Shown: positions 15,575-58,731, numbered from the stretch's first letter. The stretch: DNA of 64,000 bases from a virus (IMGVR_UViG_3300028886_000045), one strand, 5' to 3'. The notes: generated by a model from the letters alone, not told the origin. Program-made: numbers and translations.

Positions 15575-15600
15575 GGCTTTGTTATCCTCTCAGCCGTGAG
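15575..15600 (-). ncRNA. 5'-leader H-type pseudoknot, copy 1
   Basis: RNA CUC AC GGCU GA GAG GAUAACAA AGCC; AUG at 15565; -7 box at 15634-15641. Confidence 0.8.
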
Positions 15601-15793
15601 TTCAAAGTTGTTATTTGTTTCTTATTTACATTGCAAAGGTACTAATATTTTTTGACATATACAAATTTTTTGCCAATTTTTTTTCATAGGAATATAAAAA
15701 AATCCGTTTACTGCCATCCCCACAAAACAAAAGGGGTGCTCGTCTTTCAACAAACACCCCACACAACTAAACTTTTTTATATGTTATTTACTT

Positions 15794-16171
15794 TCAATTC
15801 TTTTCTTTTGCCCACTCTTCAAAGGCATCACTATACGCATAGCGAATAAATAGCATATCACCGCTACCGTCACACCACCAATCATTACAGTGCGAAATAT
15901 AACGCCCTACTTTGTTGTGTTCACCCTTGCATAACTTCTTGTATATAGAACGAAACATGGTTGAAACCACGCGCCCCTTAAAGTGACCGCCTAACTTTGC
16001 GTCATTGGTGCAGTACCCCATCATCCCATCGGTTTCAATATTGCCGTTATCGTCAAGAAACTCCATATCACCGTCACCCCAACTACCGTAGTTGATAGTG
16101 TCTTTTAATAGTTGTTTCTCATCGTCTGTCAGAACTGAAACAATCTGCTTTACTATTTCCATTGCGTTCAT
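15794..16171 (-). CDS. Hypothetical protein
   Basis: ORF; likely start MNAMEIVK at 16171, coupled to the upstream stop. Confidence 0.7.
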   Translation of the reverse strand: MNAMEIVKQIVSVLTDDEKQLLKDTINYGSWGDGDMEFLDDNGNIETDGMMGYCTNDAKLGGHFKGRVVSTMFRSIYKKLCKGEHNKVGRYISHCNDWWCDGSGDMLFIRYAYSDAFEEWAKEKN

Positions 16172-16548
16172 GCCTTTTCCTCCTTGTAATAACATTCTAC
16201 TTTCAGCCCATTACGCACCATGTATTTAAGCAATACCTTGCTTTCCTTGTAGAACAAATTAAGCCTAACCTTCTCAATCTTTTTGGCACTAAATATGTTC
16301 TCGAATGGTTTTTCACCATTACATTTAATGCTATACTTTAGGCTTCTTTCGTCATTAAAGTATGTCACCAACTGATGAACCCAAGGCAATTTTGGATTTT
16401 GGGGGTGTTCTTCTTTGTAAACATAGACGAACACCGCAAGGCAGTTTCCTTGTCTTATGTCAATCTTAAACTTACGAGGCTTTACCTCGTCACCCCTTTG
16501 CTGAACTATTGTAATAGTACCAAGTTTTGATGAATAATAATGTAGCAT
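16168..16548 (-). CDS. Hypothetical protein
   Basis: 126-aa ORF. Confidence 0.7.
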   Translation of the reverse strand: MLHYYSSKLGTITIVQQRGDEVKPRKFKIDIRQGNCLAVFVYVYKEEHPQNPKLPWVHQLVTYFNDERSLKYSIKCNGEKPFENIFSAKKIEKVRLNLFYKESKVLLKYMVRNGLKVECYYKEEKA

Positions 16549-16626
16549 AGTCTTATCTCCTATTCTTTTGATTATGATTTATTTCTAACATTTGGCAGAA
16601 AAAGCGGTCATTACAACCGCCTTTTG

Positions 16627-17238
16627 CTATTCGCGCCAATCGTCATAAATCTCGATATAGCCTTCATTTACCACGACCTTACCATATTTCTTAATGAAAT
16701 TCATAAGGTCTTCAAGGCTGTTAATTCTAACATACCAATCGTACTCTTCGCCTTCTTTGCGATAAGCCTCCTCGCATGGTTTAGTATCTGACCATGCACT
16801 TGTTCTTGATACTTTGTACTCTATACCCATATTGCTATTATCTTTGTCTTGTGACTTGTTATCGCTTGGTAACTCGTCATAATACCAACCATCACGATGA
16901 TACACGTTGAACACTTGCTCATCAACAGAAACGTAACAATATCCATCTTCGTCACGTTGTGATTCTAAGTCTTTCAGACTGAAAACGCCCTCAGTCTTTA
17001 CACCCTTTGGGTCTATTCTGTCACCGAACAAACGCCAATCCCCATTGTCCAACTCTTCACCCTCATAGATGAACCACACATAAGAATCCAACGCAGTTCT
17101 AAGTTTGAGCAAAACGCGCTTTTCTTTCTGCCACTTCGTGCTTCCAATAGGTGAAAGGTGGAGTGCCATCTGTGAACGCATTGGGATTTCAAGGCTCTTC
17201 TTCATACCTCTGTGCTTGATTTCTTTCATACTCTTCAT
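16627..17238 (-). CDS. DUF2958-like protein with extra C-terminal domain
   Basis: WFIYEGEE..GDWRLFG..EG.FSL.DLES motif. Start moved to 17238 because the ORF-track extension runs through the promoter and leader. Confidence 0.6.
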   Translation of the reverse strand: MKSMKEIKHRGMKKSLEIPMRSQMALHLSPIGSTKWQKEKRVLLKLRTALDSYVWFIYEGEELDNGDWRLFGDRIDPKGVKTEGVFSLKDLESQRDEDGYCYVSVDEQVFNVYHRDGWYYDELPSDNKSQDKDNSNMGIEYKVSRTSAWSDTKPCEEAYRKEGEEYDWYVRINSLEDLMNFIKKYGKVVVNEGYIEIYDDWRE

Positions 17239-17247
17239 ATGCTTGGT

Positions 17248-17273
17248 GGTCTTGTTATGCTCTTGACCGTGAG
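17248..17273 (-). ncRNA. 5'-leader pseudoknot, copy 2
   Basis: CUC AC GGUC AA GAG CAUAACAA GACC; AUG at 17238; -7 box at 17312-17319. Confidence 0.8.
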
Positions 17274-17461
17274 TAAAAAGGTGAAACAACTTGTAATTCT
17301 TAATTACAATGCAAAGGTACACATTTTTCTTGAAACTTCCAAATTTTTTACCAACTTTTTTCAAAAAAAATAAAAGAAATTGGTATTTTTGCCGTTTTTG
17401 TAATCCCTACATGGCAATTTTATACCAATTTCCTAAAATTTGTATTCAAAAAATCCGTTTT

Positions 17462-17869
17462 CTAAATTCTGTTGCGTGGGTTCGGTTCGTCAAACCCTAA
17501 TGTAATAGTAGCCGTATAATTCAAATCTTCGCTTATAGACGCGCTTTTTCCTGTATATATAAGGTGGAAAACTACGTTTGGCATACCATCCACCTCCAAG
17601 TTAAAACTATCGCCATACGCTAAATTTAGTAGGTTTTCTTTTCGCGTTTCATATTCAGCCTTTGTCTCACCAAACACGACAAACGGCAATGTAAGGGAAC
17701 GCGCCTTGCATCTTCTGAACAAAGGCAATGCCCTATTGCCATTTTCTAAACGCGATGTATTGGTTACATAGTCTTTCATTTCCAAAGGCTGTTTTAAGGT
17801 ATTCAGAAAACCCTCGCCCATCATCACGCCTACCAAGTAATTACCATTTACTTTTATCTGTTTCAACAT
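17462..17869 (-). CDS. Putative distal tail (Dit-like) protein, paralog 2
   Basis: Follows the TMP; clearly paralogous to 17871-18275. Confidence 0.65.
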   Translation of the reverse strand: MLKQIKVNGNYLVGVMMGEGFLNTLKQPLEMKDYVTNTSRLENGNRALPLFRRCKARSLTLPFVVFGETKAEYETRKENLLNLAYGDSFNLEVDGMPNVVFHLIYTGKSASISEDLNYTATITLGFDEPNPRNRI

Positions 17870-17870
17870 A

Positions 17871-18275
17871 TTACCCCCTTTTTCTATATGGTTTCGGTTC
17901 GTTAAATCCCAATGTTAGCAAACACGACAATCCGTTATCTGCATAACTTACGTTTTTGCCCGTATATATCAGTTCATGCACCTCGCTTTCATCGTGGGAC
18001 GTACTTAATTCTATCTTATCGCTATCCACCAAGTCCAATAAATGCGCCTTATTGGTTTCAAAATCCGCTTTCGTATCGCCAAAGACTACAAATGTAAGGA
18101 CGAGGGAACGTGCCTTAAAGCGGTTCGGCATATCCACCAAGGTTTTCCCATTTTTTAGCCTTGATTCGTTGTATATACACTCTTTACGTTCAAGGGGTTG
18201 GTGGAGGGCGTTCAAGAAACCGTCCCCCATCATTACCCCATTAACGTATGCACCATTTATCTTTATCTGTGCCAT
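17871..18275 (-). CDS. Putative distal tail (Dit-like) protein, paralog 1
   Basis: Immediately after the TMP; shared GVMMG.GFLN.L.QPLE.K and KARSL.L.FVVFG.TKA motifs. Confidence 0.65.
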   Translation of the reverse strand: MAQIKINGAYVNGVMMGDGFLNALHQPLERKECIYNESRLKNGKTLVDMPNRFKARSLVLTFVVFGDTKADFETNKAHLLDLVDSDKIELSTSHDESEVHELIYTGKNVSYADNGLSCLLTLGFNEPKPYRKRG

Positions 18276-18278
18276 ATC

Positions 18279-21200
18279 TTACAACTTCTCCATTTGCCTA
18301 CGCATTCTGTCCATTTCGTCAGCCATTCGCTTAATTGGCTCTACGACATCCCCCGTGTTCGTTTCAATGTTTTGCAGAACCAAGTAGGATTGTGCCAACA
18401 AGTTCCTTGTGTCCTCGGCAATAGACCTCTGCGTAACGATTTCAGATACCAAGCCTTGCAATGACGTGTTAAGTGATACGCTTTCAGAAAGTGACGCGCT
18501 ACTTTCAAAGCGGTTTCTTTCGCTTTCGGCTATCTTTGCAACCTCTTCCGCGTATCTGTCAAAGAACTCCGTCACCGTTTCGGTTTCGTTGTCCCTTTTA
18601 CGCGCTTCTGTGACTTCCGCGCTATGCTTTCCGACACTTACTTCTTCGTCTTTCTTTTCGGACTTCGTTGTGTTCGGTGTTGCATTCTGCCTTTCTGCGA
18701 TTTCTTGATTGTACGCTTTCAATACCACAGATAAGTCATTTACGCTTTCATACATCTTTTTGATGTAGTCGCTTATGGCATCAAGGGTGGGAACGACATT
18801 TGCGTTTTCTGTGTTATCCGTATCGTTATCCACTTCAACCTCAAATGTTGCACCCTTAGAAAGTGCCGTGTTAGCCTTTTCTGCCATCATTGACATAATT
18901 GTATCAACGCGCTCGGCTAATAGGGTAGAATTGCGTGCAATGACTTCGTTACTCGTCTGCAAAGCCGTAAACCTTCCATTCAGTTCATCGGCTGTGTCTT
19001 GTGACATACCCTCAAAACCCTTGGTCGTACCCTCTTGCTCAGAAACTTGCTTATATCCCGTCAAGTCTGCTATTTGGTCGCGCTTCTGCATAGCCTCTTG
19101 CACCATATCCTCATAGCGTTTTCTGAACTTTTCGACTTCTGCTTGTGACATTTTACCACCGCTATCCGTCAATTTCTTGGAATAGTCATCGTACCATTGT
19201 TGCAACTTATCCTTATACAAAGCACCTATTTCGTTAGATAGCAATGCCTTGGTAAACTTCTCCGTCAAATCGTCTGTGAAATCCGAAGCCGAAGCCTCCA
19301 TATCCATTAACGTATCAACGAAATTCCCATACATATCATCGAAAGACATTTGCGCTACTTGTTCACGCATAGCCTTATCGTTTTCCTTGATAGCCTCGTC
19401 ACATTCAATAATCTTTTCGAGGTATTCTTGGAAATCGCCATCCAACTTTGCCCAAAATAGGCTTTGGTCTTCTTTGATTTTCTGCAACTGCTCACCCGAC
19501 ATCATCGTCAAATCCCTAATATCGGAAATACCGATTTTGTTATAGTACTCCTTTAGGTCGCGATTCATACGATAACCATACGAGTGTGAGCCTATGCTTG
19601 CGCCCGCGCCCAACCTTTCTTGTGCCAAAGTTCTTGTAGCCTCAATCTCGTTGTTATAGATTCTTTCGATTTCCTTTCCAACTTCTTTGATTTCACTACC
19701 CCACGATTCACTTAGATACTCCTTTTTCTTGCTTATCAGTTCATCCCATATACTGATAAGTTCCTCATATTCGCCCTTTGCGTTTTCGTACCCCGAATCG
19801 TCTTTGCCCAAACCTATAAGGTCGGCTGCCGCCGTAGCCAACTGAATTGCTGCGCTTATGATTGCAAGAATGGCAGATGCCTTTTCAATCGTAGATATTG
19901 AGGTGTCTGTCACCGTAGATACGGCTGTCATGGCAGCACCAACAGAAGACACCATATTACCAATATCCTTAATATAACGCCCTGCGTCACCGCCAAATTC
20001 ATTCACTTGCTCACCCAAATCATTCATCGCAGAACCAAGGGAACTTAGGCTCTTTCCTACTTCTGCTCTTGATTTCTTGACCTTTGCATTCGCGGTTTTC
20101 TCCTTATTCAACGCATTCTTGTATCTGTTTTCTGACTTTGTTAGTTTGTCTTGTGCGTCAATAAGTTTATTGGTCGGTATGCCTTGCTTTGCGCGGTTCA
20201 AGTCCTCTTGCGCTTCTGTAACTGCAATTATCGCCTCCCTTTCGCGTGCCAAAGCGTCCTCAACCCTTTGTTGCGCTTCTGCTTGCTCCTCTGCCGTGCC
20301 ACTTTCCATAGCATTGGCATAGTCTTGCTCCGCTTGTTCCCTTACATTGGTGGCAATATCCTTTTCTTGCTCCCTACCTTTCAGTTCGCTTTCATAATAC
20401 GCCTTACTTTCCTCACCGCTAAGTCCGCTTAACCAATTTACTTGTTTCTGTGCGTCTGCAAATTCTTTGGCTGTGTCCTTTACTTCCACCTTTGCCTCTG
20501 CCATTTCCTTTACGCCCTCTTTCCAAGTCTTGAAAGGGTTACGGCTTGTAACCTCTTCGCTTATCTTATTCATAAGGTCTGCAATGGCTTGCAGTTGGTC
20601 GGGTGGTAGGTCTGTCAAAGCAGCCTTCGCGTTCTTTAGTTTAGAGTACAAGGTATCTAACCCTTCAGTAGTAACATACTGTGGGTCTTCCATAGCCGAC
20701 AAATAATTTGGGTCTTTCTTGATTTCTTCCAAACTATTGTTTGCTACAACTTCATCCTTTTCCTTTCTGTATCGCTTTTCTTCGCTGACCTTTTCCCACT
20801 CATTCGCGCCCTTGATACGCAAATCATTAACGCGCTTTATGTGTTCCAACTCAGTTGCTTGTAGTTGCTGTTGCTTATCGCCATATTGTTTCAGATATTC
20901 GATTTTCTTTGGTTCGAGATTATCTGACTTGTTATCAAGCGTTAAAGCAATCTTATCCTGTGCCTTTTCGGAAAGTTCATCACTTTTCTCAATGATACCT
21001 TTCTGCAAATTAGCATCCTTCAGTTGCACATCCAATTCAATCTTTTCGCTTGCAATCTGTTGCAACTCAGCCTTTAGGGTTTGCAATTCCTTGCTTAACC
21101 TTTCCTTTTCGCCTTTCTTGAAATCTGCCCCTTGCAGTTGGATTTCCACCTCTTGAATGCGCTTTTTCTTTTCCTTTTCCTTTTCATCGACTGCCTTTGA

Positions 21201-26631: not shown

Positions 26632-26841
26632 TTACTTATTTGCCCTAACGCAATTATTATACATTATCTGCAAGGCTTGTTTGCGTGTGTAACCGCAACT
26701 TGACCCCTTCAACGTGTCCCATAGTTGGCTATCATGCTCGGTATATGATATATATCTGTTACGATATTCTACGACCACATGGTAACTACCATAACCCTTC
26801 CAACTTACTGAAACCTTGTTTTCTAATTGTGCTAAAGTCAT
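26632..26841 (-). CDS. Hypothetical protein
   Basis: 69-aa ORF behind pseudoknot copy 3. Confidence 0.7.
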   Translation of the reverse strand: MTLAQLENKVSVSWKGYGSYHVVVEYRNRYISYTEHDSQLWDTLKGSSCGYTRKQALQIMYNNCVRANK

Positions 26842-26850: not shown

Positions 26851-26876
26851 GGCTTTGTTATTCTCTTAGCCGTGAG
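26851..26876 (-). ncRNA. 5'-leader pseudoknot, copy 3
   Basis: CUC AC GGCU AA GAG AAUAACAA AGCC; AUG at 26841; -7 box at 26912-26919. Confidence 0.8.
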
Positions 26877-27960: not shown

Positions 27961-28173
27961 TTACTGAAATGCTACCATTTCGTTAGCCAATCCAATCCAT
28001 TTCTCCGCTTTCTTTCCGAAAACTGACAACTGATTAGCGATGTCCTTTAAGTCGTTCTTCTGAACCTTGCTTAATGGCTTGCTAACCATATTGCTTAGAT
28101 GAAAGTAATAGTCGATTGCATCAACTAAACCATTAAAGCGTGACTCTGCGATTTGCTTTAAGTTCTGTTTCAT
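27961..28173 (-). CDS. Hypothetical protein
   Basis: 70-aa ORF behind pseudoknot copy 4. Confidence 0.7.
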   Translation of the reverse strand: MKQNLKQIAESRFNGLVDAIDYYFHLSNMVSKPLSKVQKNDLKDIANQLSVFGKKAEKWIGLANEMVAFQ

Positions 28174-28183: not shown

Positions 28184-28209
28184 GGTCTTTTTATTCTCTT
28201 AACCTTGAG
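28184..28209 (-). ncRNA. 5'-leader pseudoknot, copy 4
   Basis: CUC AA GGUU AA GAG AAUAAAAA GACC (one U-G pair); AUG at 28173; -7 box at 28241-28248. Confidence 0.75.
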
Positions 28210-34579: not shown

Positions 34580-34858
34580 CTAACCCTTCAAAGTGACAAT
34601 GAAATACACGTTGTAACGACTATCAGCACAAACAACCGTCAATTCGTGTATCTTTGCACGATATTTGTATGTAGCCAAATTCAACCCTTTAAGGCTTCTG
34701 TTGATAATCTGCTCGTTAAGGTGCAACTTCTTTCTGTTGCTTATGTATTGGCGTTGCAACTTGCATCCCTTTTCTTCGCACATCTTATGTATTTCACTAA
34801 GACATTCACGAATTGATGCGTCCTTTACAAGTTCTTTGCCTACATACATTTTAGCCAT
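34580..34858 (-). CDS. Hypothetical protein (single-gene cassette)
   Basis: 92-aa ORF with its own promoter, pseudoknot and terminator. Confidence 0.7.
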   Translation of the reverse strand: MAKMYVGKELVKDASIRECLSEIHKMCEEKGCKLQRQYISNRKKLHLNEQIINRSLKGLNLATYKYRAKIHELTVVCADSRYNVYFIVTLKG

Positions 34859-34867: not shown

Positions 34868-34893
34868 GGTCTTGTTATTCTCTTGACCGTGAG
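34868..34893 (-). ncRNA. 5'-leader pseudoknot, copy 5
   Basis: CUC AC GGUC AA GAG AAUAACAA GACC; AUG at 34858; -7 box at 34928-34935. Confidence 0.8.
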
Positions 34894-34996
34894 TTCTAAA
34901 TTCTTCTGTTATTTCTTAACTACGATGCAAAGGTACTAAATTATTTTGAACTATGCAAATTTTTTACCAACTTTTTTTTTGAAAAAAATAAAAAAA

Positions 34997-38058: not shown

Positions 38059-38718
38059 TCAAGAAACGTAATCGGCAAAGTTATCCGCAGCCTTCAAAGC
38101 CTCCGCCCTTGTTTCAATTATCTTTGTACCCCTCATTCTGAATGGCACGACTTCAACAATTCCATTTTTCAATGTATCATTAAAACTCCATGCGTCATCA
38201 TCTTTGTCATATTCTTTTAGCACTTTTATAAGTGCCTTACGGAATGACTTATTATTACAGTACATTACTTTCGTCTTTTCGGTTTCGTGCCCAATATCAA
38301 AAAGCATATCGCCTACACCGAAACCCATGCACGCACGGTGTGAAAAGCCGTAATACTTTAGGGTTTTAGTATTGAAAACGACTTGTGGATGACCTACAAC
38401 CTTACGCCACCCCTCGCCAACCAATATCCAAGGCATATCCTCAATGTGGTAACTGCTTCCGTCTGCTATCACAACCAACTTTTCAAATTGGCTATTCCAA
38501 CCGAATATACCACATAACTTATTCTTTCCGTATTCGGAAAAGCCGTTTACATAACGCTTTCTTACCGAAAAGTACACGTTACCAAACAACTTCCAAGCCT
38601 TGATACACATATCCTTACCGCCTGCACATCCCCTTATGTAATAAGGATAGCCGTTTTCTAACTTGACATAAGCCTCGCCATTAAAGCATTTAATCTTACT
38701 TAAAAGGTCTTTTATCAT
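38059..38718 (-). CDS. Hypothetical protein
   Basis: 219 aa; YGFSHRA..GFGVGD motif. Confidence 0.7.
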   Translation of the reverse strand: MIKDLLSKIKCFNGEAYVKLENGYPYYIRGCAGGKDMCIKAWKLFGNVYFSVRKRYVNGFSEYGKNKLCGIFGWNSQFEKLVVIADGSSYHIEDMPWILVGEGWRKVVGHPQVVFNTKTLKYYGFSHRACMGFGVGDMLFDIGHETEKTKVMYCNNKSFRKALIKVLKEYDKDDDAWSFNDTLKNGIVEVVPFRMRGTKIIETRAEALKAADNFADYVS

Positions 38719-42526: not shown

Positions 42527-42877
42527 TTAGTCTCCATTCTGACTATTGACGAAACTATAAAGTCCATCCAAGTCACGGCTTGCATACTTCTTTTGTAAAG
42601 CCTCGACTATGCCACCAAAGCAATCCTTTAGGCTTTTCATATATTCGCGTCCATTATGATTTGTCCAATTTTCGCGATACCATTTGCCTTGATAGTTTCC
42701 GACCGTGAACGCATCACCGCCAAAAGCATCCACCATATAGTCGGCATAGAACCAATCACAATCCTTGCATTCTCTGATTTTTACAATGTTGAAAATACCG
42801 CGCTTTTTAAGCACCACGCTTACACTATTTGCAAAACTCTTGAATGATTCGTAGTCATTTACGATGATATACCCCAT
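42527..42877 (-). CDS. Hypothetical protein, paralog of 42998-43360
   Basis: Shared MVDAFGGDA, QGKWY.EN.T and NSQN motifs. Confidence 0.8.
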   Translation of the reverse strand: MGYIIVNDYESFKSFANSVSVVLKKRGIFNIVKIRECKDCDWFYADYMVDAFGGDAFTVGNYQGKWYRENWTNHNGREYMKSLKDCFGGIVEALQKKYASRDLDGLYSFVNSQNGD

Positions 42878-42885
42878 ATCTCGGT

Positions 42886-42911
42886 GGCTTTGTTATTCTC
42901 TTAGCCGTGAG
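42886..42911 (-). ncRNA. 5'-leader pseudoknot, copy 6
   Basis: CUC AC GGCU AA GAG AAUAACAA AGCC; AUG at 42877; -7 box at 42938-42945. Confidence 0.8.
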
Positions 42912-42997: not shown

Positions 42998-43360
42998 TTA
43001 GTCTTCATTCTGACTATTGATAAAGTCGCAAAGTTCTTGTGTGTTGCGCACTTTGAATAGTTCTACCAAAGCATCTGAAACGCCATCAAAGCACTCCTCG
43101 AAACTATCCTTAAACTCGCGTTCTGTGCCTTTCGTGAAATTCTCACAATACCATTTGCCTTGCAAGCAACCTACCATATAAGCATCACCGCCAAAGGCAT
43201 CCACCATGAAACTTGCAAGAAACCAATCAAAATCCGCGTAATTGCGTGTCTTTACCATGTTGAAAACACCTTGCTTATTAAGCAACTTGCTAATAAGTGA
43301 TACGCTACACTTGAAATCCTCATAGTTTTCAACAGCCATATTCAAACCATTCAAATCCAT
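42998..43360 (-). CDS. Hypothetical protein, paralog of 42527-42877
   Basis: Same shared motifs as 42527-42877. Confidence 0.8.
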   Translation of the reverse strand: MDLNGLNMAVENYEDFKCSVSLISKLLNKQGVFNMVKTRNYADFDWFLASFMVDAFGGDAYMVGCLQGKWYCENFTKGTEREFKDSFEECFDGVSDALVELFKVRNTQELCDFINSQNED

Positions 43361-43369: not shown

Positions 43370-43395
43370 GACCTTGTTATCCTCTCGGTCGTGAG
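43370..43395 (-). ncRNA. 5'-leader pseudoknot, copy 7
   Basis: CUC AC GACC GA GAG GAUAACAA GGUC; AUG at 43360; -7 box at 43431-43438. Confidence 0.8.
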
Positions 43396-43561
43396 TTCTA
43401 ATTGATTAACTTGTTTTCTTAATTACAATGCAAAGGTACGCATTTTTTTTGAAACTACCAAATATTTTACCAACTTTTTTTCAAAAAAAAATCATTTTTG
43501 TGTGTTTATTGCCAAAACCGCAAAAAAACACCCCCTTATTATAAGGGGATGCTTGAAATAT

Positions 43562-43867
43562 TTACTTTGCGCTCATTATATCCACAAACATCTTTGCAAG
43601 TTGCTTGTTTACTTCGTCAATCACCTCCTTTACGGCTGTGTACTGACCGCCCAATCTTTCAAGTGCCTTTTCAGCCTTTGCAACGTCTTCCAAGTTCTGT
43701 GCGAATAATTGCGCACCGCTTTCTACCAAAAGGTAACGCTTTTTCAGTTGCGCCAACTCCTTTTTAAGATACTTTACGTTAAGCATCTTACCTTCTTCTT
43801 TCATGAGGTTTTCGTAGAATGACTTCTTTTCGTTGTAGTACTCATTCTTGTATTCTCTAATCTTCAT
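43562..43867 (-). CDS. Hypothetical coiled-coil protein
   Basis: 101-aa ORF behind pseudoknot copy 8. Confidence 0.7.
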   Translation of the reverse strand: MKIREYKNEYYNEKKSFYENLMKEEGKMLNVKYLKKELAQLKKRYLLVESGAQLFAQNLEDVAKAEKALERLGGQYTAVKEVIDEVNKQLAKMFVDIMSAK

Positions 43868-43876: not shown

Positions 43877-43902
43877 GGCTTTGTTATTCTCTTAGCCGTG
43901 AG
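43877..43902 (-). ncRNA. 5'-leader pseudoknot, copy 8
   Basis: CUC AC GGCU AA GAG AAUAACAA AGCC; AUG at 43867; -7 box at 43937-43944. Confidence 0.8.
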
Positions 43903-44039: not shown

Positions 44040-44993
44040 CTACAAACGCTTGAAACTTTCTATTTCTTCGTCTGTCATACCGAAATGCAAACCAAGCATT
44101 TCTATCTTATCATCCAACTCGCCCAACGCTTTCTTTCCAAAGTTTCGCAATTTCAAGAAATCCGTCTTATTATGTCTTACAACATCTTCTATTGTGTTGG
44201 CATCCGCATAATTAAGGCAATTCAGAACCCTAACGGAAAAGTTCATTTCCCTAACCCTTGTTTTCAGTAGTTGCACCTTTTCTATGTCATAGCCACTTAT
44301 AGCATATTCTGCCCTTGCGTTTTCGATTTTGACTTTATCCCCACGCTTTGCCAACTTTACCTTTTCACGCAACTCGTACTCGCAAAGCCTTTTCGCCAAC
44401 TTCTTTTGGTTCAGTTCCAAGGTGTGTATATGTTCCCTTTGTAGGATTGTCTTTCTTTTCAGTTCTTCACAACGCCTTTCCGTTTCTTGCAGTTCGCTAA
44501 TACGCTTTGATGCTTTCCGCAAAGTCTTAGCCAACCGAACCGTCATTAGTTGTCGTGATAGCCTCTGCAAACGCCTTGGGTTGTAGGTCTTTTGTGACGA
44601 AAAGAATTGTATCATCAAATCCATATAGTCATCATCAACCTTTATCCCCATGCCACTTATCACACTCATTAGGTCTTTCATCGCAGTCAGATAATAACCG
44701 CCCTTATCCCCCATAATCGCACGTTGCACCGACTGAATTTGTGCGTGATATTCATGGAGTTTCCGTGTTAGTTCTTCTCTGCTTTCCGCTATTGCATTAT
44801 CAAGTGTCGCAACCTCTTCGACCTTTGGCAGATTATCAAACATGGTTTCTTTGTCTATATACACCATGTTCCCAATCCGCTTTGTCTTGAAATAGCCCTT
44901 TTCTACATAGTTGGAAACCGTTTGGACTGAAACCCCCAATATATCCGCTACTTGCTTACGCCCTATATATGTAGCATTAATTGTTTTTGCCAT
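44040..44993 (-). CDS. HTH + coiled coil + RNA polymerase alpha-subunit C-terminal domain fusion
   Basis: N-terminal QVADILGVSVQTVSNYVEKG; C-terminal FSVRVLNCL..TIEDVV..FLKLRNFGKKALGEL..LGLHFGM. Confidence 0.85.
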   Translation of the reverse strand: MAKTINATYIGRKQVADILGVSVQTVSNYVEKGYFKTKRIGNMVYIDKETMFDNLPKVEEVATLDNAIAESREELTRKLHEYHAQIQSVQRAIMGDKGGYYLTAMKDLMSVISGMGIKVDDDYMDLMIQFFSSQKTYNPRRLQRLSRQLMTVRLAKTLRKASKRISELQETERRCEELKRKTILQREHIHTLELNQKKLAKRLCEYELREKVKLAKRGDKVKIENARAEYAISGYDIEKVQLLKTRVREMNFSVRVLNCLNYADANTIEDVVRHNKTDFLKLRNFGKKALGELDDKIEMLGLHFGMTDEEIESFKRL

Positions 44994-45345
44994 TCTTTCG
45001 CTTCTTTTTCCTTGCAAGGCGTTTCCGTTCATTGTAACGCGCACGCTCTTCGCTCGTCATGCTATCGTACCTTTCCTTTGCCTTGCGCTTGATTTCTTCT
45101 TTGTTCCTTTCGTAACGCCTTTTGTTATACGCCTTACGCTCCTCCTCCGACATAGCGGAATATGTAGCGTTTCCGTCATACCCCTTTTCCTTCTGCTTTA
45201 GATACACGGCATGACGATACAACCTTTTTTCCGTTGCTGACTTATTCGCCCTTCTTTCACGCGCCTTTTCCAACAACCTTTCCCTATTGGCTTCGTAGTA
45301 AGCCTTATTTAACTCCTTACGGTTTTTTTTCTGTTTCTGTGTCAT
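44977..45345 (-). CDS. Highly basic hypothetical protein
   Basis: Y.E.N.E..K repeats. Confidence 0.65.
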   Translation of the reverse strand: MTQKQKKNRKELNKAYYEANRERLLEKARERRANKSATEKRLYRHAVYLKQKEKGYDGNATYSAMSEEERKAYNKRRYERNKEEIKRKAKERYDSMTSEERARYNERKRLARKKKRKNGKNN

Positions 45346-45570: not shown

Positions 45571-45801
45571 CTATCGGTTTCTGTCGGCAAAATCCGCAAA
45601 GTCCCTTAGATAGTATTCACGCATTTTTTCCCCATGCTTCAACGCTATCCATTTTTTAGCAACCGCTAATGTTTCTTTACGCATATCTGCCAACAGACTC
45701 CTTACGTTGCTTGTGTGCACATAATAATCGCTATCTTTAGCATAGGTGCTTATCTCGTCCAAAGATTCAGCAACCTCTTCGATTCTGTTGTCTATGTTCA
45801 T
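45571..45801 (-). CDS. Hypothetical protein
   Basis: 76-aa ORF coupled to the upstream gene. Confidence 0.65.
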   Translation of the reverse strand: MNIDNRIEEVAESLDEISTYAKDSDYYVHTSNVRSLLADMRKETLAVAKKWIALKHGEKMREYYLRDFADFADRNR

Positions 45802-46115
45802 GCCATATCCTTATAAACCATTCTAATCCAACACTTGACGATGACCTCGTTATGCTTGAAAACAGACTCCTTCTCTTGCTTGCTTAGATGGTATTCAACA
45901 AATTTGATTTCCTTAAAATCAATGTTTGTCGCAACCAAGACGAAAGCACCGTCTGAATTGCGGATGTAAAGGTTCGTTTCGCTGTTTGAATTACGGCTAA
46001 TGCAATGCAACTTGAAACATAAGTTTCCGTACTTATAGATGTGTGAAGCACTACCTTCGCGGTCTGAACACTTTACTACGCTGTAAATTGTTTCTACATC
46101 CTTCCAATTCTTCAT
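45798..46115 (-). CDS. Hypothetical protein
   Basis: Start reassigned to 46115 (MKNWKD) from the leader position. Confidence 0.7.
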   Translation of the reverse strand: MKNWKDVETIYSVVKCSDREGSASHIYKYGNLCFKLHCISRNSNSETNLYIRNSDGAFVLVATNIDFKEIKFVEYHLSKQEKESVFKHNEVIVKCWIRMVYKDMA

Positions 46116-46124: not shown

Positions 46125-46150
46125 GGTCTTTATATCCCCTTGACCGTGGG
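46125..46150 (-). ncRNA. 5'-leader pseudoknot, copy 9
   Basis: CCC AC GGUC AA GGG GAUAUAAA GACC; AUG at 46115; -7 box at 46185-46192. Confidence 0.8.
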
Positions 46151-47452: not shown

Positions 47453-47710
47453 ATCTAAAAAAGTTTAAGAAGTTAAAAAGTGGGGATGACTTACACCCCT
47501 ATCCCCTTGGGTGTTGAAATCGGTTTTGTTCTGATTTCTGATGCAAAGGTACAACAAATGTTTGACACTTGCAAATTTTTTACCAACTTTTTTTGTAATT
47601 TTCTTGAAATATCACATTTTTGTAATGTGTAGTTTGCAAAAAGTTGGTATAATAACGCCTTACACCTTATTATAAATATATAAGGGGATGCTTTATGCAC
47701 CCCCCTATAT

Positions 47711-51919: not shown

Positions 51920-51954
51920 TTTCTTCTTGCTTTTAATATTAAACTATCTTTTTC

Positions 51955-53508: not shown

Positions 53509-53533
53509 AATTTACCTTGTGATTTTATTTCGG

Positions 53534-53604
53534 CAAAGATAAGCAAAATTTCCTACTTTGTTCTCGTTTCACAATTCCTTTTTGCTCATTTTGCCCATAA
53601 TGAA
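53534..53604 (-). promoter_or_regulatory. Class II promoter for adhesin gene
   Basis: caaagata at 53534-53541; CTCATTT-N6-TAATGAA at 53585-53604. Confidence 0.65.
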
Positions 53605-53620
53605 CTTTATTGATTATTCC

Positions 53621-55045: not shown

Positions 55046-55086
55046 ATGACTTATTTTTGCTTAAACAATAAATTACTTCTGATTTG

Positions 55087-55156
55087 CAAAGTTAAGCCAT
55101 ATTACGCACTTACACAAATAAATACATACGGATTACTTCACTTTGTTTCTAATGAT
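55087..55156 (-). promoter_or_regulatory. Class II promoter for fibre gene (also has -33 TTTG)
   Basis: caaagtta at 55087-55094; TTCACTT-N6-TAATGAT at 55137-55156. Confidence 0.65.
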
Positions 55157-55182
55157 AACTTAGGAATATACGCATAAAAAAA

Positions 55183-55210
55183 ACACCCATATCTTCACAG
55201 ACGGAGGTGT
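55183..55210 (-). terminator. tRNA operon terminator (GUGA family)
   Basis: acacc-catatcttcacagacgga-ggtgt plus U tract. Confidence 0.65.
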
Positions 55211-55264
55211 ATGTTAAACCTGTTAAACTAATTATAATGCTGAAATATTCTTGCTCTGATATTG

Positions 55265-55335
55265 TTGTCCCAAAAGGACTCGAACCTTTTCAAACAGAAC
55301 CAAAACCTGTTGTGCTACCATTACACCATAGGACA
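55265..55335 (-). tRNA. tRNA-Gln (UUG)
   Basis: Cloverleaf: acceptor TGTCCTA/TGGGACA, anticodon arm ACAGG-TT TTG GT-TCTGT, GGTTCGAGTCC T arm; no encoded CCA. Confidence 0.93.
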
Positions 55336-55631
55336 TTATTTTTCACAAAGGTTAGCGCACCCAAAGGCTTGGGGAAAACCGCCTTGGTGGGATTGGGTGG
55401 GATAGCGCAAGGCAGAGACAAACCATTGCCGAAGGTAGCGCATAACCTTGTGAAATTGGGGATGCCTCCACTATTAGGTTTCGGCTTTTTGGCTGTAATT
55501 CGCACCCCCTTTCCGTGCGAAGGTTTTATAGTCTTTTACCTTGACCAACTCGCGATTTTTAAGTCTTATCTGACCTTGAACACCGCCAACCATCCGAAGG
55601 GAAATCCGAAAGATAATCGGCTATCGTGTTG

Positions 55632-55712
55632 TACCCAAAAAGGGACTCGAACCCTTACGCTTTTCAGCATCGGTGTTTGAGACCGACTCGGCTACCATTA
55701 CGACATTTGGGT
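55632..55712 (-). tRNA. tRNA-Leu (CAA)
   Basis: Acceptor ACCCAAA/TTTGGGT, anticodon arm TCGGT-CT CAA AC-ACCGA, long variable arm, GGTTCGAGTCC. Confidence 0.92.
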
Positions 55713-55915
55713 ATATTATAAAGGGGGTGAAGGCTTACAAGGCTATACACAGACTATCGCACGTTGTCTGTCGTATAATGGGACTACCTTTGCTCCATCC
55801 CCTTTGTGTATGTGATAAGAAGGGCGATGTACGATACCCCTCGAACCACTTTTGTAAGATAGGAGGGGGTCGTTTGAATACCCCCTACAAACCTTTATCG
55901 TGAAAACCGCATTTC

Positions 55916-56230
55916 TTAGAAACAGCGGTTTATCTTGTTTCTTACTTCTTTGCCGTAGTTCTTTTCAACGAAATCCTCTAAATCGTATATTAACTTTAGG
56001 CGTATTGACATCAACTCTGTTGTAATGCTACCAAGGTAAAGATGGATAGACTCGATGCCTTCAAGTGCCTTCTGCCATTCAGCAAGCATCCACTTTTCCT
56101 CTTCTGTTTCTGCATTCTTCTTGAAGAAAGACACCAATGTAACGACTGCCAAAGTAATGTTGTTGTCCTCTTTTAGGTCGTTAGCCTTCTTGACTGCCTT
56201 ATTGAATGAACTTAAAACCAAATTCTTCAT
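55916..56230 (-). CDS. Hypothetical protein
   Basis: 104-aa ORF behind pseudoknot copy 10. Confidence 0.7.
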   Translation of the reverse strand: MKNLVLSSFNKAVKKANDLKEDNNITLAVVTLVSFFKKNAETEEEKWMLAEWQKALEGIESIHLYLGSITTELMSIRLKLIYDLEDFVEKNYGKEVRNKINRCF

Positions 56231-56239
56231 AATTCTTGT

Positions 56240-56265
56240 GACCTTGTTATTCTCTCGGTCGTGAG
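56240..56265 (-). ncRNA. 5'-leader pseudoknot, copy 10
   Basis: CUC AC GACC GA GAG AAUAACAA GGUC; AUG at 56230; -7 box at 56299-56306. Confidence 0.8.
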
Positions 56266-56630
56266 TTTTAGATTCGTTGTTTCTTTCTTATTACAATGCA
56301 AAGGTACAACAATTATTTGATATATGCAAATTTTTTACCAACTTTTTTCAATATTTTTTCATTTTTCTTGATTTTGCCATCCCTACATGGCAAAAATGCT
56401 ACATATATATCACTTTGTTGTACTTCTGTGCACACTTCGCTTGTACGTTATTGCAATGCTGAAACGTATTATATAAGGTGTAACTATCATGTGTAGCCTC
56501 AACGAATGCACAAACCTCCCTTAAAGAATGCGTCTGAAACACCGTTTTGAATATGCTTTGCACTTGATACAAGTTACCAATGTGTCTTAACTTCAACCCC
56601 TTTTTCCTAAGTAGGGAATATAATCTTTCC

Positions 56631-56954
56631 TTATCCATTCTTCTTTTTCTTTCGTTGTTCTATATCGTTTTCAAAGACGCGAACAAAATCCCCATAAGGA
56701 TGATTTGTGTTTCCTGTCCAATAACGCCTCCAAGTGCGTTGATATGCCTTGCGTAACTTTTCATCCGTAGCGTGTTGGTAACAATGCTCACAGACACAGA
56801 AACACCCCTCGTACCTATCCAACTGCACCGTATGGTTTTCTGCGTATTTCCAAGGCAATCCACAGATTTCGCAATAACTCCACGATGGGTTTAGTATTCT
56901 AAGCACCAAGGGAACACCCCAAATCCTTTTTAGCCTTTCTTTGCTTATTTTCAT
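56631..56954 (-). CDS. Hypothetical zinc-finger protein
   Basis: CEICG..C.HC motifs. Confidence 0.65.
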   Translation of the reverse strand: MKISKERLKRIWGVPLVLRILNPSWSYCEICGLPWKYAENHTVQLDRYEGCFCVCEHCYQHATDEKLRKAYQRTWRRYWTGNTNHPYGDFVRVFENDIEQRKKKKNG

Positions 56955-56959
56955 TCGAT

Positions 56960-57355
56960 TTAATCTTTACAATGTCCTAACACTTCCACCTTAATATCCC
57001 AATTCTCCGTGTTTAGTTTTGGTACATCACAGAAAAAATAAGTCTGCTTTCCCCTTGTACCATCCTTCTTCATCTTCCACATATACGGATAGAAATTTTC
57101 ATCTTGGATTTCTATTCTTTCGTATATACCGATTACTTCCTCTTTTATGTCCTTTGAGATATGATGCGTGATAAATCTTACTATGTCACCTTTCCTTATA
57201 CCCAACTCCTTTTCAATCAAGGGGAATGTTATCTCCTTTAGGAATGCTTTCGCTTCCCTTTCTGCTTTTCGCGCTTCTTTTTCAAGTTCACGCGCCCTTT
57301 CGTGCCATTTGCGATAAGCATTATAGCCTTTATAGTTTTCTATATCCAACTTCAT
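56960..57355 (-). CDS. Paralog family member (coiled coil + GIxKGDI..KKDG..EVLGH)
   Basis: Shared motifs with the next two genes. Confidence 0.75.
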   Translation of the reverse strand: MKLDIENYKGYNAYRKWHERARELEKEARKAEREAKAFLKEITFPLIEKELGIRKGDIVRFITHHISKDIKEEVIGIYERIEIQDENFYPYMWKMKKDGTRGKQTYFFCDVPKLNTENWDIKVEVLGHCKD

Positions 57356-57358
57356 TTC

Positions 57359-57433
57359 CTACTTGCTTTTAATATTCGTGTTCAGTTTTACCCCCAACAC
57401 TTCCACCTTGAAATCATCTGCATTAAGATACAA
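57359..57433 (-). pseudogene. C-terminal relic of the same paralog family
   Basis: Reads LYLNADDFKVEVLGVK, versus FLNSDDFKVEVLGH in 57873-58310. Confidence 0.65.
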
Positions 57434-57452
57434 CTAAAGGGGATAACCCCCT

Positions 57453-57863
57453 TTAGTCTTCTATGTGTCCTAAGATTTCCACCTCATAGTCGTAATCCAT
57501 TTGGTTGTATGGATTGATGCAAGGCGTTTTCCACATTGACTCGTATATCTTACCCTTACTACCGTCTTTCTTCAACTTGAAAAGGCGTGGGTAAATAGTG
57601 CCGTATTCGATTTCCATCTTATCATAAACGCCTTCGACTTGATTAATTAGACTATTCTTGCTTTTGCCGTTCTTTGAAGAAATGCGGATAATATCACCCT
57701 TCTTGATACCTAACACGCTTTCCAACTTTGGGAAAAGCACATTTTCATAGAGGCTATTTTTCTCCTCGTTAAGCCTTTTAATCTTTTCCTTGTGGGCTTC
57801 GATTACCTCTATACACTCGTTGATTCGCTCGTATTCAGCGTATTCTTTATAAGGTATTTTCAT
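57453..57863 (-). CDS. Paralog family member
   Basis: LGIKKGDII..KLKKDGSKGK..EVEILGH. Confidence 0.75.
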   Translation of the reverse strand: MKIPYKEYAEYERINECIEVIEAHKEKIKRLNEEKNSLYENVLFPKLESVLGIKKGDIIRISSKNGKSKNSLINQVEGVYDKMEIEYGTIYPRLFKLKKDGSKGKIYESMWKTPCINPYNQMDYDYEVEILGHIED

Positions 57864-57872
57864 AACTTGTAT

Positions 57873-58310
57873 TTATTTAGAATTATAATGTTTATCAAAT
57901 TCTTTCATATGTCCTAACACTTCCACTTTGAAATCGTCAGAATTAAGAAATGGCAAATGCCATTGTGCAAAACTTTTTTTCAGTACCTCGCCCTTGTTTC
58001 CTATCGGATGGACGGTAGGGCAATACACCTTATAGAATCTATCATAGAAAACAGAAATGAACACGCCTTTTTTTTCTATCATTTGCCCATCTCTTCTAAC
58101 AAAAGAAAATTTCACTATATCACCTACTTTTAGGTTTAGTTTCGTTTCGATTTCATCTGCTATCACCTCGGCTTTGATTCTTTCTGCTTCTATTAGCCTT
58201 TCTTCTGCCTTTCTTCGCATTTCCATCGCTTGCTCTTGCAGTCTTTCGGCTTCTTTTTCCGTGTCACAAAGTGTTTTGTAACCCTTCAATTCTTGCACAT
58301 TTATCTTCAT
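57873..58310 (-). CDS. Paralog family member
   Basis: LKVGDIV..KVEVLGH. Confidence 0.75.
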   Translation of the reverse strand: MKINVQELKGYKTLCDTEKEAERLQEQAMEMRRKAEERLIEAERIKAEVIADEIETKLNLKVGDIVKFSFVRRDGQMIEKKGVFISVFYDRFYKVYCPTVHPIGNKGEVLKKSFAQWHLPFLNSDDFKVEVLGHMKEFDKHYNSK

Positions 58311-58373
58311 AGTGTTTACGTTTTTGTCAATTACACTAAACTACACTTAAAAGGTTTGTTCTATGTGGGGATT

Positions 58374-58697
58374 TTACTCCCCACGCATTGTTTCAAAGAA
58401 CTTTTCAAATTCTTCTATATCGTAATGCTTTACGCACCTTAAAGTCCCCCTATCCAACTCGTCCATCATTTCAGACAATTCAAAAGAAGAAACCTCGATT
58501 TCCTTTAGCCTTACTTCGTTTGTTACATCCCATGAACCATCGAAATAAAAGATTGACTTTGCACTCTTTTCGCTTGTAGCAAGGTATTCTAAGGCAAATC
58601 TGCGCCTATGTACTGCCTCCTTTCTAAGTCTGTCATATACCGTGACCCAACTCTTCAAGTAAACCGCCCATACCTTGAATTTCTTTTCCTTTACCAT
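58374..58697 (-). CDS. Hypothetical protein
   Basis: 107-aa ORF behind pseudoknot copy 11. Confidence 0.7.
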   Translation of the reverse strand: MVKEKKFKVWAVYLKSWVTVYDRLRKEAVHRRRFALEYLATSEKSAKSIFYFDGSWDVTNEVRLKEIEVSSFELSEMMDELDRGTLRCVKHYDIEEFEKFFETMRGE

Positions 58698-58705
58698 AAT
58701 ACTAT

Positions 58706-58731
58706 GACCTTTTTATTCACTTGGTCGTGTG
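58706..58731 (-). ncRNA. 5'-leader pseudoknot, copy 11
   Basis: CAC AC GACC AA GUG AAUAAAAA GGUC; AUG at 58697; -7 box at 58765-58772. Confidence 0.8.

Follow-up and report, generated by a model that had tools for sequence, protein, structure and literature searches.

A repeated, covarying 26-nt RNA element at a fixed distance from start codons probably governs translation initiation in a rumen phage that makes no use of Shine-Dalgarno sequences

How does a phage mark the start codons of its genes if the ribosomes of its host do not read Shine-Dalgarno (SD) sequences? Ribosomes of the Bacteroidia, the host class, are unable to use SD pairing, and IMGVR_UViG_3300028886_000045 is a cattle-gut (rumen) phage of Bacteroidota with an entire genome of 178,667 bp (~179 kb). 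A first-pass annotation of a 64,000-nt stretch of this genome (the window, to which coordinates refer unless stated otherwise) had described 11 copies of a 26-nt pseudoknot with the layout S1a(3)-L1(2)-S2a(4)-L2(2)-S1b(3)-L3(8)-S2b(4), each just ahead of a start codon. All 11 lie where it had placed them, on the minus strand, and each has this layout (Table 1). The stem types that it had listed are also correct.

Table 1. Copies of the pseudoknot in the window and the open reading frames behind them.
Feature	Position	Strand	Stem 1	Stem 2	Loop detail	Score (bits)	Spacing to ATG (nt)	ORF	Length (aa)	Product
Knot	15575..15600	-	CUC/GAG	GGCU/AGCC		49.2	9	15281-15565	95	MutS domain I
Knot	17248..17273	-	CUC/GAG	GGUC/GACC		43.4	9	16630-17238	203	
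Knot	26851..26876	-	CUC/GAG	GGCU/AGCC		52.9	9	26635-26841	69	
Knot, U-G wobble	28184..28209	-	CUC/GAG	GGUU/GACC	L1 = AA	46.4	10	27964-28173	70	
Knot	34868..34893	-	CUC/GAG	GGUC/GACC		53.6	9	34583-34858	92	
Knot	42886..42911	-	CUC/GAG	GGCU/AGCC		52.9	8	42530-42877	116	
Knot	43370..43395	-	CUC/GAG	GACC/GGUC		54.0	9	43001-43360	120	
Knot	43877..43902	-	CUC/GAG	GGCU/AGCC		52.9	9	43565-43867	101	
Knot	46125..46150	-	CCC/GGG	GGUC/GACC	L3 = GAUAUAAA	39.7	9	45801-46115	105	
Knot	56240..56265	-	CUC/GAG	GACC/GGUC		49.1	9	55919-56230	104	
Knot	58706..58731	-	CAC/GUG	GACC/GGUC		49.5	8	58377-58697	107	

A pattern built from the non-covarying letters only, CNCANGNNNNAGNGNATANNAA, matched exactly these 11 sites in the window, with 0 matches expected by chance (100 dinucleotide-preserving shuffles of the window). 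The full genome contains 29 copies: 28 canonical copies of 26 nt and one 24-nt variant with shorter loops. All 29 are on the coding strand, with 0 on the opposite strand and 0 in shuffled sequence. Two other searches of the whole genome gave the same picture. A pattern of loop letters alone had 27 forward matches, 0 reverse matches, and 0 matches with a reversed-pattern control, and a structure-only descriptor, combined with a nearby ATG and an ORF, matched 29 sites, all of them on the coding strand, and nothing in shuffled sequence. As the element precedes ~29 of ~290 genes (~10%), the term "phage-wide" was an overstatement. Some copies have further neighbors or relatives: the ORF at 34583-34858 is upstream of the capsid module, a terminator-like hairpin (43548-43531) follows the ORF at 43565-43867, and the knot at 42886..42911 has an identical copy in strain contigs L295 and L296.

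The pattern of sequence variation indicates that the element is paired. Full pairing was found in 27/27 copies that had been picked by their loop letters, with pairing not a search condition. In an alignment of 28 copies, 100% of cells are paired, and pairing falls to 16-46% once the partners are slid by 1-3 columns. Both stems covary, as the first-pass annotation had proposed: 4/7 base pairs have changes on both sides, and the observed covariation score was reached by 0/500 shuffles. Genome-wide, stem 2 has an additional type (GACU/AGUC) and additional wobble forms (GACU/GGUC and GACC/GGUU). Three G-U wobbles across the genome fit the sense RNA only. The earlier view that the stems cross, that they form on the sense strand alone, and that the element acts as RNA is supported. 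Judging from this covariation, the 26-nt element is a genuine RNA fold within the 5' leader, which takes the form of an H-type pseudoknot or of two mini-hairpins that exclude each other.

The consensus of the element is CUCACGNNNNRAGAGNAUAACAANNNN. The stems vary freely while the loop letters stay nearly fixed (A10, A17, A22, U23, A24, A25, A27, and A28 are nearly invariant). On both sides of the knot the RNA is single-stranded and rich in A (5', UUAGAA; 3', ACAA), and several ACA or CAC triplets occur within the element and its 3' flank. Either stem alone is weak (mean energies of −2.0 and −2.9 kcal/mol), so a ribosome could open the element easily, and a partner could stabilize the fold.

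The element is tied to the start codon. In the window, all 11 copies end 8-10 nt ahead of an ATG, as had been reported, and genome-wide 22 of 28 copies have a spacing of 9 nt, 4 have 8 nt, and 2 have 10 nt. The spacers of these 28 copies fall into 25 different sequences, so the length of the spacer is kept while its sequence varies. The window copies also lie 26-38 nt after a TTTG...TACCTTTG promoter (11/11, again in agreement with the earlier description), and genome-wide the promoter (TTTG...TACCTTTGCA), the leader, and the knot precede 23 small ORFs, with terminators after some of them. However, the promoter is absent upstream of 6 of the 29 copies, which sit directly behind a stop codon or a terminator and have unchanged spacing to the ATG. 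Thus, the element goes with the start codon and not with the promoter. These promoterless copies and the conserved length of the variable spacers make the link to translation stronger than the first-pass annotation could see. The genes behind the element encode proteins of 58-203 amino acids, mostly of unknown function, and include a DUF2958 protein and MutS domain I proteins; those in the window are unrelated, as had been claimed, save for three paralogous pairs. One decayed copy (at ~154,100 in the genome) is still ahead of an intact ORF, so the element is not indispensable.

The phage genome itself makes no use of SD sequences. SD-like motifs are present at −18 to −4 in 0 of 26 element-bearing genes, and their frequency in genes without the element (25/266) is at the background level (6.7% at random positions). 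The idea that the element occupies an SD-like position is therefore borne out, in that its distance from the start is fixed in a genome without SD use. Genes without the element have an A-rich patch at −14 to −12, and element-bearing genes keep an A at −6 and a purine at −3. In Bacteroidia, the reported determinants of initiation are A−3, A−6, A−12, A−13, and low structure, and the anti-SD is sequestered by bS21, bS18, and bS6 (PMC7797042, PMC13000457). As the base preferences near the starts of this phage match these determinants, the host context fits a role for the knot in docking the ribosome.

The element has no counterpart in Rfam 15 and is very narrowly distributed. In line with the suspicion that it was not a described family, a cmscan run over the entire window with gathering scores found no matching family. 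With a 1.2-kb stretch containing 3 copies or an 86-nt stretch as the query, there was no riboswitch match at E ≤ 10, and the DUF805 and DUF805b motifs (RF03081, RF02914) did not come up at this threshold either. When viral, metagenome, and genome collections were scanned by pattern, a single copy outside this genome emerged, on an integrase-bearing contig (L056). This copy adds a further compensated stem type (GGCC/GGCC), sits behind a different leader, and is on a contig that has no protein in common with this phage across its 10 kb. When 185,579 species genomes were scanned in the same way, no Bacteroidota-labeled record matched, and 11 matches by pattern alone were in other or unlabeled lineages. 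The 5' part of the leader is common to over 100 other phage contigs, and gut phage loci with the same promoter and leader (~0.8 Mb) contain 0 copies of the element. In these scans the family is limited to this rumen phage lineage plus contig L056, a far smaller range than one would expect of "a general solution".

Taken with its place before the AUG, the fold probably controls how ribosomes that ignore SD sequences begin translation. We tentatively propose, at somewhat less than even confidence, that the knot is a positive signal by which the 30S subunit of the host docks or is positioned. It would act in cis on initiation at the AUG 8-10 nt downstream: the compact knot and its flanking A-rich single-stranded RNA would bind ribosomal protein bS1, the 30S platform, or both, and the bound knot would abut the mRNA exit side, so that the AUG is placed in the P site. 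On strongly transcribed accessory (and probably early) genes, the structure of the knot could then take the place of the SD helix. Both the binding partner (bS1 or the platform) and the enhancing direction of the effect are our inference. Other systems offer a precedent for the partner. S1 binds H-type pseudoknots with nanomolar affinity, and in the tisB mRNA an H-type pseudoknot is essential for the binding of both 30S and S1 (PMC7708055). Also, ACA motifs enhance translation (PMC3879156). Finally, the copy on contig L056, which has no shared protein beside it, argues weakly against the need for a phage-specific partner. A more specific version seems doubtful to us but worth stating: the knot may be an IRES-like bacterial substitute for the SD helix that docks directly on the platform or on bS1 of SD-blind Bacteroidota ribosomes, with the start codon set by a fixed 9-nt ruler. 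If so, then the phage uses structure-based ribosome recruitment to win translation for its accessory genes.

Several observations do not sit easily with a docking signal. First, low structure near the start normally favors initiation in Bacteroidia, and a knot in this region (about −10 to −35) could equally inhibit. Second, A−12 and A−13, which normally help initiation, are base-paired within stem 2. Third, a generic enhancer that acts on the host ribosome might be expected to spread more widely than this narrow family. Fourth, the nearly invariant loop letters would suit recognition by a specific protein equally well.

This last point leads to the main alternative explanation, which we consider rather unlikely: the knot could be a translational operator, with a trans-acting protein (from the phage or possibly from the host) that reads the invariant loops and blocks or activates 30S access, so that ~29 small accessory or early genes are switched together. 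T4 RegA, which acts on early mRNAs, and coat-protein operators are precedents for such control. Besides the contrast between fixed loops and free stems, the restriction of the element to one promoter-leader class and its operons is regulon-like; the family is limited to one phage lineage; the knot is inside the region that a 30S subunit must occupy; and a bound protein could stabilize a fold whose single stems are weak. Precedents of this kind are known from T4 (reviewed in PMC3014915). However, no candidate binder was found: homologs of cold-shock proteins, S1, or bS21 were not found in the genome, in which most genes have no known family. (Pfam RegA, PF01818, had no match in the phage genome but also none in any control genome.) Furthermore, blocking does not require a spacing that is held to ±1 nt with variable spacer sequence, and no protein encoded on the 10 kb of contig L056, where the outside copy lies, is shared with this phage.

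It is improbable that the knot acts instead on the stability or processing of the mRNA, by marking or protecting a processed 5' end, so as either to block 5'-end-dependent decay or to signal cleavage between cistrons. Contigs from one rumen RNA library bear on this. One covers the knot at 28184..28209 and ends at 28209, which is the first base of the knot, and another ends at 34900, 7 nt upstream of the knot at 34868..34893, and continues into adapter sequence; also in favor, the intercistronic copies are directly behind stop codons. But these two ends are at different offsets, and assembled contigs cannot define RNA ends; a third contig end (42913) falls at a repeat where DNA contigs break as well. 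A 5' stabilizer need not be 8-10 nt from the AUG, either. And as the promoter-proximal knots begin 26-38 nt past the TTTG, their distance from the expected transcription start should be roughly 20-35 nt, which does not place them at the 5' end.

We think it very unlikely that the knot is a minimal riboswitch that senses a ligand or a condition (preQ1-I-like, or a thermo- or Mg-sensor) and tunes all of these genes. The topology is that of the preQ1-I aptamer, in which a hairpin loop pairs with the 3' tail past an A-rich stretch, the 2-nt junction loop could make a pocket, and the stems are marginally stable. Nevertheless, the 86-nt query matched none of the riboswitch models in Rfam, even at a threshold of E ≤ 10; stem 1 is just 3 bp long; the fold includes neither the AUG nor positions −9 to −1 and so lacks an expression platform; and the 29 downstream ORFs are unrelated and have no common pathway. 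Among the four roles put forward in the first-pass annotation, the riboswitch and the 5' decay block look weakest.

Just as remote is the idea that the knot has no RNA function of its own and travels with a promoter-leader cassette that is duplicated, moves by recombination, and reshuffles small genes in the manner of the PeSLs of T4-type phages (PMC4122927): promoter, leader, and knot are repeated in tandem before small ORFs, sometimes with terminators, assemblies break at these repeats, and other phages share the 5' part of the leader, but duplication alone leaves unexplained the compensated stem changes (not one cell is unpaired), the copies without promoter and leader, the drift of spacers in sequence and not in length, or the different leader on contig L056. 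A role in recombination and a function as RNA may coexist.

Indeed, PeSL cassettes resemble the arrangement seen here, as they are regulatory units that recur beside small variable ORFs in plastic genome regions; they differ in being terminator-promoter composites, thought to be recombination sites, and not covarying folds linked to starts (PMC4122927, PMC2839356). A repeated promoter cassette that flanks small variable ORFs is found in this phage too, except that 6/29 copies of the element have no promoter.

PreQ1-I (RF00522) and the frameshift knots of the luteovirus type share with the element a very small H-type fold in which loop 1 has 2 nt and loop 3, rich in A, can lie along the minor groove of stem 1. 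We rejected preQ1-I: stem 1 has 3 bp rather than 5, cmscan gave no match, the neighbors are not queuosine or preQ1 genes, and no RBS is sequestered, as the AUG and the 8-10-nt spacer are outside the fold. A −1 frameshift knot of the luteovirus type was rejected as well, because the copies are in non-coding leader or intercistronic RNA and because the slippery heptamer X XXY YYZ, which such knots follow at 5-8 nt within a coding region, is absent (the 5' flank is UUAGAA-like).

Among phage operators, the gene 32 knot is found a long way upstream of the RBS of a single gene, which it autoregulates, and RegA sites are unstructured and overlap the AUG. The likeness of T4/RB69 gene 32 and the RegA regulon to the present element is that, in phage mRNA leaders, a 5' pseudoknot (gene 32) or an operator common to many early mRNAs (RegA) governs initiation (PMC3014915).

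The SAS/ESAS elements of Cluster K mycobacteriophages are similar in distribution. Like the present element, they are short and asymmetric, with many repeats in one phage group; they lie in a single orientation a few nucleotides before the starts of unrelated non-structural genes; they are mostly paired with ATG and essentially absent from host genomes; and their role is thought to lie in translation initiation (PMC3203893). The combination that characterizes SAS (repeated, in one orientation, next to starts of unrelated genes, and absent from the host) is present here, the last point resting on the scan of species genomes. In contrast to our element, which has covarying pairs, no SD core, a distance of 8-10 nt from the start, and an SD-blind host, SAS is a conserved 13-bp sequence (GGGATAGGAGCCC) that includes the SD core AGGAG and lies 3-7 bp from the start, and RNA pairing is unsupported (PMC3203893). 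We therefore rejected the element as an example of the SAS sequence type (the consensus is different and an SD-like motif is present in 0/26 genes).

Also comparable are the +42 standby pseudoknot of tisB and a SELEX ligand of S1, which, like the present knot in its 5' leader, are small H-type knots beside single-stranded RNA; there, 30S and S1 cannot bind unless the knot is present, and translation depends on this binding (PMC7708055). It is the mechanism that we favor here. The tisB knot is ~100 nt from a sequestered RBS, belongs to one gene, and works together with an SD sequence (PMC7708055), whereas the present knot is 9 nt from the AUG, is repeated 29 times, and has no SD sequence. In this phage, H-type pairing is backed by compensatory changes, which come from natural covariation in both stems.

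In the window, all 11 proposed copies of the 26-nt element (or knot) are present on the minus strand at the starts claimed for them, from 15575 to 58706. Direct reading gave the layout S1a(3)-L1(2)-S2a(4)-L2(2)-S1b(3)-L3(8)-S2b(4) for each, and, as the first-pass annotation held, each is preceded by a TTTG...TACCTTTG promoter and stops 8–10 nt short of an ATG (11/11). When two helices and A-rich loops were the sole demand, a scan of the window found 11 copies on the minus strand and none on the plus strand. (An extra match at 47595 was rejected as an obvious chance match.) Similarly, a pattern of the non-covarying letters picks out the 11 copies and nothing else; the expectation from 100 shuffles is 0. 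The full virus record (178,667 bp, 96% complete according to CheckV) contains more copies. A loop-only pattern matched 27 times on the coding strand, and neither the opposite strand nor a reversed control gave any match. A covariance model built on sequence plus stem 2 (R1) gave scores of 37–55 bits to 28 copies and at most 12.5 bits to everything else. Finally, a structure-only descriptor, which also demands an ATG 7–11 nt downstream plus an ORF, matched 29 times on the coding strand, 0 times on the opposite strand, and 0 times in shuffled sequence. Two of the weak R1 matches are a 24-nt variant and a decayed copy (see the table). The copies in two strain contigs (L295 and L296) are identical and hence say nothing new about covariation, and no variants inside copies were among the best-supported differences in four bovine runs.

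The two stems pair perfectly in 27 of the 27 copies that were chosen from the whole genome without a pairing requirement. In an alignment of 28 copies (A1), 100% of the cells are standard pairs and 4 of the 7 pairs have changes on both sides (U-A, C-G, and A-U in stem 1; A-U/G-C, C-G/U-A, and C-G/U-A in stem 2). The observed covariation score was reached by 0 of 500 shuffles of this alignment, and sliding the partners by 1–3 columns lowers pairing to 16–46%. The claim of a strand-specific wobble also held up: three copies have a G-U pair, for which the other strand would give A-C mismatches. If we consider only the distinct founder types (five for stem 2, counting a copy from outside this genome, and three for stem 1), then we infer that full complementarity by chance is very unlikely.

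The crossing helices are either an H-type pseudoknot or two mutually exclusive hairpins, which covariation cannot separate. By established pseudoknot geometry, both loops are long enough sterically: one has 2 nt to cross a 4-bp stem, and the other has 8 nt to cross a 3-bp stem. The single helices are weak (mean of −2.0 and −2.9 kcal/mol), and we found no consistent competing structure in the surrounding leader. A third helix, in which UUA in the 5' flank would pair with UAA in loop 3, was ruled out by variant copies that lack compensation. In the GGUC-type copies (e.g., 43370–43395, minus strand), loop 3 and stem 2b read UAACAAGGU, which we take to be the same as the universal stretch of 16S rRNA that is complementary to primer 1492R. 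Since other copies show covariation in stem 2b, this is probably a coincidence.

A near-consensus Bacteroidota promoter and then a conserved leader start (TTGTAATTAAGAAAC...) precede 23 of the 29 copies, and in these promoter-borne copies the knot begins 34–46 nt past the first base of TACCTTTGCA. In the promoterless copies, what lies just upstream is a stop codon, a terminator-like hairpin, or ordinary intergenic sequence. The knot has conserved flanks (5' UUAGAA and 3' A-Y-A-A), and the spacer between the knot and the ATG measures 9 nt for 22 copies, with four more at 8 nt and two at 10 nt; the U at −1 is invariant in the 9-nt spacers. There are 25 distinct spacer sequences, with a mean pairwise identity of 65%, versus 83% for loop positions. 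Because the lengths hold while the sequences differ, the length of the spacer is under selection, and not only its sequence. Some of the cassettes occur in tandem and have a terminator-like hairpin at the end.

The genes after the element are small and mostly unrelated, as had been claimed: the ORFs are of 58–203 amino acids (median of about 100) and, save for three pairs, are unrelated to each other. The same ORFs were predicted by an independent gene caller in one strain contig. The only Pfam families represented are DUF2958, in one protein, and MutS domain I, in two stand-alone proteins. No homologues of these genes were found in relatives' fragments, and charge and pI did not identify an obvious RNA-binding candidate among the encoded proteins. 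As for other genes in the window, a protein with HTH_17 and RNA polymerase alpha C-terminal domains is encoded amid the knot cassettes and could have a bearing on how their promoter class is read. A Tad6-like protein is, from its domain match, a candidate anti-defence gene.

Coordinates of variant, promoterless, and outside copies of the element and of selected genes
Feature	Position	Strand	Remarks
Promoterless copies (6/29)	genome 3662, ~4296, 64000, 70753, 73290, 73665		same ATG distance
24-nt variant	genome 4296-4319 (L036:4296-4319, a locus outside the window)	+	both stems intact; loops 2 and 3 each 1 nt shorter
Decayed copy	near genome 154,100 (L035:4094-4124, a locus outside the window)	+	stem 2 unpaired; promoter, leader, and ORF retained
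Outside copy	L056:9305-9330 (foreign contig)		CUC/GAG with new compensated stem 2, GGCC/GGCC
MutS domain I, 95 aa	window 15281-15565	-	knot-headed; clear Pfam match
MutS domain I, 105 aa	L039:10787-11101	+	knot-headed; Pfam score below cut-off
tRNA genes (two)	window 55265-55335, 55632-55712	-	between knot cassettes
HTH_17 and RNA polymerase alpha C-terminal domain, 334 aa	window 44040-45044	-	PF03118, E=1.8e-15
Tad6-like, type I Thoeris inhibitor, 219 aa	window 38059-38718	-	PF25188, E=1.8e-13

The element had not been recognized as a described family, and no family in Rfam 15 matches it in searches of rising leniency. In IMG/VR viral contigs, exact and degenerate patterns matched only by chance, with the stems unpaired, and a fixed-stem, free-loop pattern had only chance matches among the at least 116 matches listed. 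In JGI metagenome contigs, we found 0 matches and then, with a degenerate pattern, 14, of which only the copy in L056 is genuine. Across 185,579 species genomes, the exact pattern had 0 matches and no Bacteroidota-labelled record was among 11 later letter-pattern matches, most of which come from Clostridia, from lineages of other kinds, or from bins with no label beyond "bacterium". The L056 copy precedes a 62-amino-acid ORF, with 9 nt between it and the ATG, and has a different leader, behind a TAACTTTG promoter. Its contig (10 kb, 47% GC) encodes an integrase and SSB, and no proteins are common to this contig and the phage. R1 found nothing in three capsid-protein relatives (L033, L043, and L044; 59–66% identity). 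The end of the promoter and the start of the leader, TTTGCATTGTAATTAAGA (first 18 nt; e.g., window 43402–43470, minus strand), are common to over 100 other IMG/VR contigs of 20–220 kb (loci L189–L294). Most of the distinct leaders there run on into a GGUG-AGACA-CACC hairpin, not the knot; this hairpin is conserved and lies about 20 nt before the ATG. Neither R1 nor the structure-only descriptor found the knot in these contigs (757 kb, or ~0.8 Mb). Because the Rfam and pattern scans yield L056 alone outside of the phage and records very near it, and the leader-sharing loci lack the knot, the knot family is sharply defined and narrow, and the descriptor scan of these gut phage loci argues against this exact geometry being general.

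The phage has promoters of the Bacteroidota type. The closest kin of its capsid protein are from uncultured human-gut phage fragments (59% identity), followed by Cellulophaga and Riemerella phages. The phage's DNA turns up repeatedly in bovine gut runs of 12 studies, as well as in RNA libraries. In one RNA library, contigs cover 3 of the 7 copies examined. Depth in this library varies strongly: the capsid operon is covered far more deeply than the regions beside it, a pattern consistent with transcription. The contigs define neither ends nor strands.

The genome does not use Shine-Dalgarno (SD) pairing: SD-like motifs at −18 to −4 are at background level, with 25 cases among the 266 genes that lack the element versus 6.7% at random positions, and with none among the 26 genes that have it. 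Genes without the element are A-rich at −14 to −12 (56–62% A) and often have U at −1 (58%), which is a Bacteroidia-type start context. Genes with the element have A at −6 in 85% of cases and a purine at −3 in 89%. Published work on Bacteroidia describes an anti-SD that bS21, bS18, and bS6 sequester, and it gives A-3, A-6, A-12, A-13, and low structure as features that help initiation; contacts with bS1 are suspected to matter (PMC7797042; PMC13000457). The start context in the phage matches these determinants. The mRNA upstream of −3 is not visible by cryo-EM (PMC13000457).

The fixed ruler to the AUG, the independence from promoters, the strict bias for the sense strand, and the non-coding placement point to a role in translation initiation. 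Our preferred explanation, which we hold tentatively and at somewhat below even chances, is that the element is a positive docking or positioning element. First, a spacing that holds to ±1 nt while the spacer drifts suggests a geometry relative to the ribosome. Second, leader pseudoknots are known high-affinity ligands of S1 and can be needed for 30S binding (PMC7708055), and ACA-type motifs enhance translation (PMC3879156). Third, the copy in L056 has no nearby protein in common with the phage. On the other hand, structure close to the start usually hinders initiation in Bacteroidia.

The main alternative, which we consider unlikely, is that the element is an operator for a trans-acting regulator. 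The narrow distribution and near-invariant loops would suit a specific protein. Searches of the phage for bS21, S1, RegA, and cold-shock proteins had no matches, but the RegA search was equally blank in every control genome and is therefore uninformative. A phage antisense sRNA that acts on the conserved loop was rejected, as the intergenic regions yielded no seed of the UUGUUAUNCNC type.

Spread of the cassettes by recombination, for which the PeSLs of T4-type phages are a precedent (PMC4122927), may explain the copy number by analogy, but it leaves the covariation unexplained. (Cassette "joints" were rejected as evidence of recombination because other genome copies map onto the repeat; the letters inserted at 34894/43416, for example, prove to be the leader that belongs to the 17248 copy.) Another idea is that the knot protects the 5' end of the mRNA. 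In one rumen RNA library, contigs end at 28209, the first base of a knot, and at 34900, 7 nt upstream of one and followed by adapter (both minus strand). However, these are only two ends, at differing offsets, and they may represent either 5' ends of RNA or artefacts of assembly. The idea of a riboswitch would have to do without an expression platform and with an incoherent set of genes. The wobbles and the promoterless copies leave no room for an operator at the DNA level, and neither an anti-terminator nor a plain repeat needs a fixed ruler to the AUG.

For the choice of start codons by Bacteroidota ribosomes without SD pairing, the known determinants are only scattered upstream adenines and low structure. 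The knot offers a direct handle on SD-independent initiation: a discrete, mutation-tolerant fold of 26 nt, at a fixed distance of 9 nt from 29 start codons, is a compact and portable object to use in reporters, toeprints, and cryo-EM. If the knot recruits ribosomes, then bacteria would have a new class of initiation signal, and the knot would be a useful expression part for engineering Bacteroides and Prevotella. If it is an operator, then about 29 small genes would form a regulon of the phage, and the knot would point to an RNA-binding regulator.

We found no comparable element in Bacteroidota or their phages in the literature searched. The nearest system in mechanism is the S1-binding leader pseudoknots, although for the knot, S1 binding is only proposed. 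Among described phenomena, the Start-Associated Sequence of Cluster K mycobacteriophages (PMC3203893) comes closest, and it resembles the knot in its genomic behaviour. Unlike the knot, the Start-Associated Sequence is a sequence motif with an SD core, and RNA pairing is unsupported for it. The element belongs with these leader pseudoknots and start-associated phage repeats.
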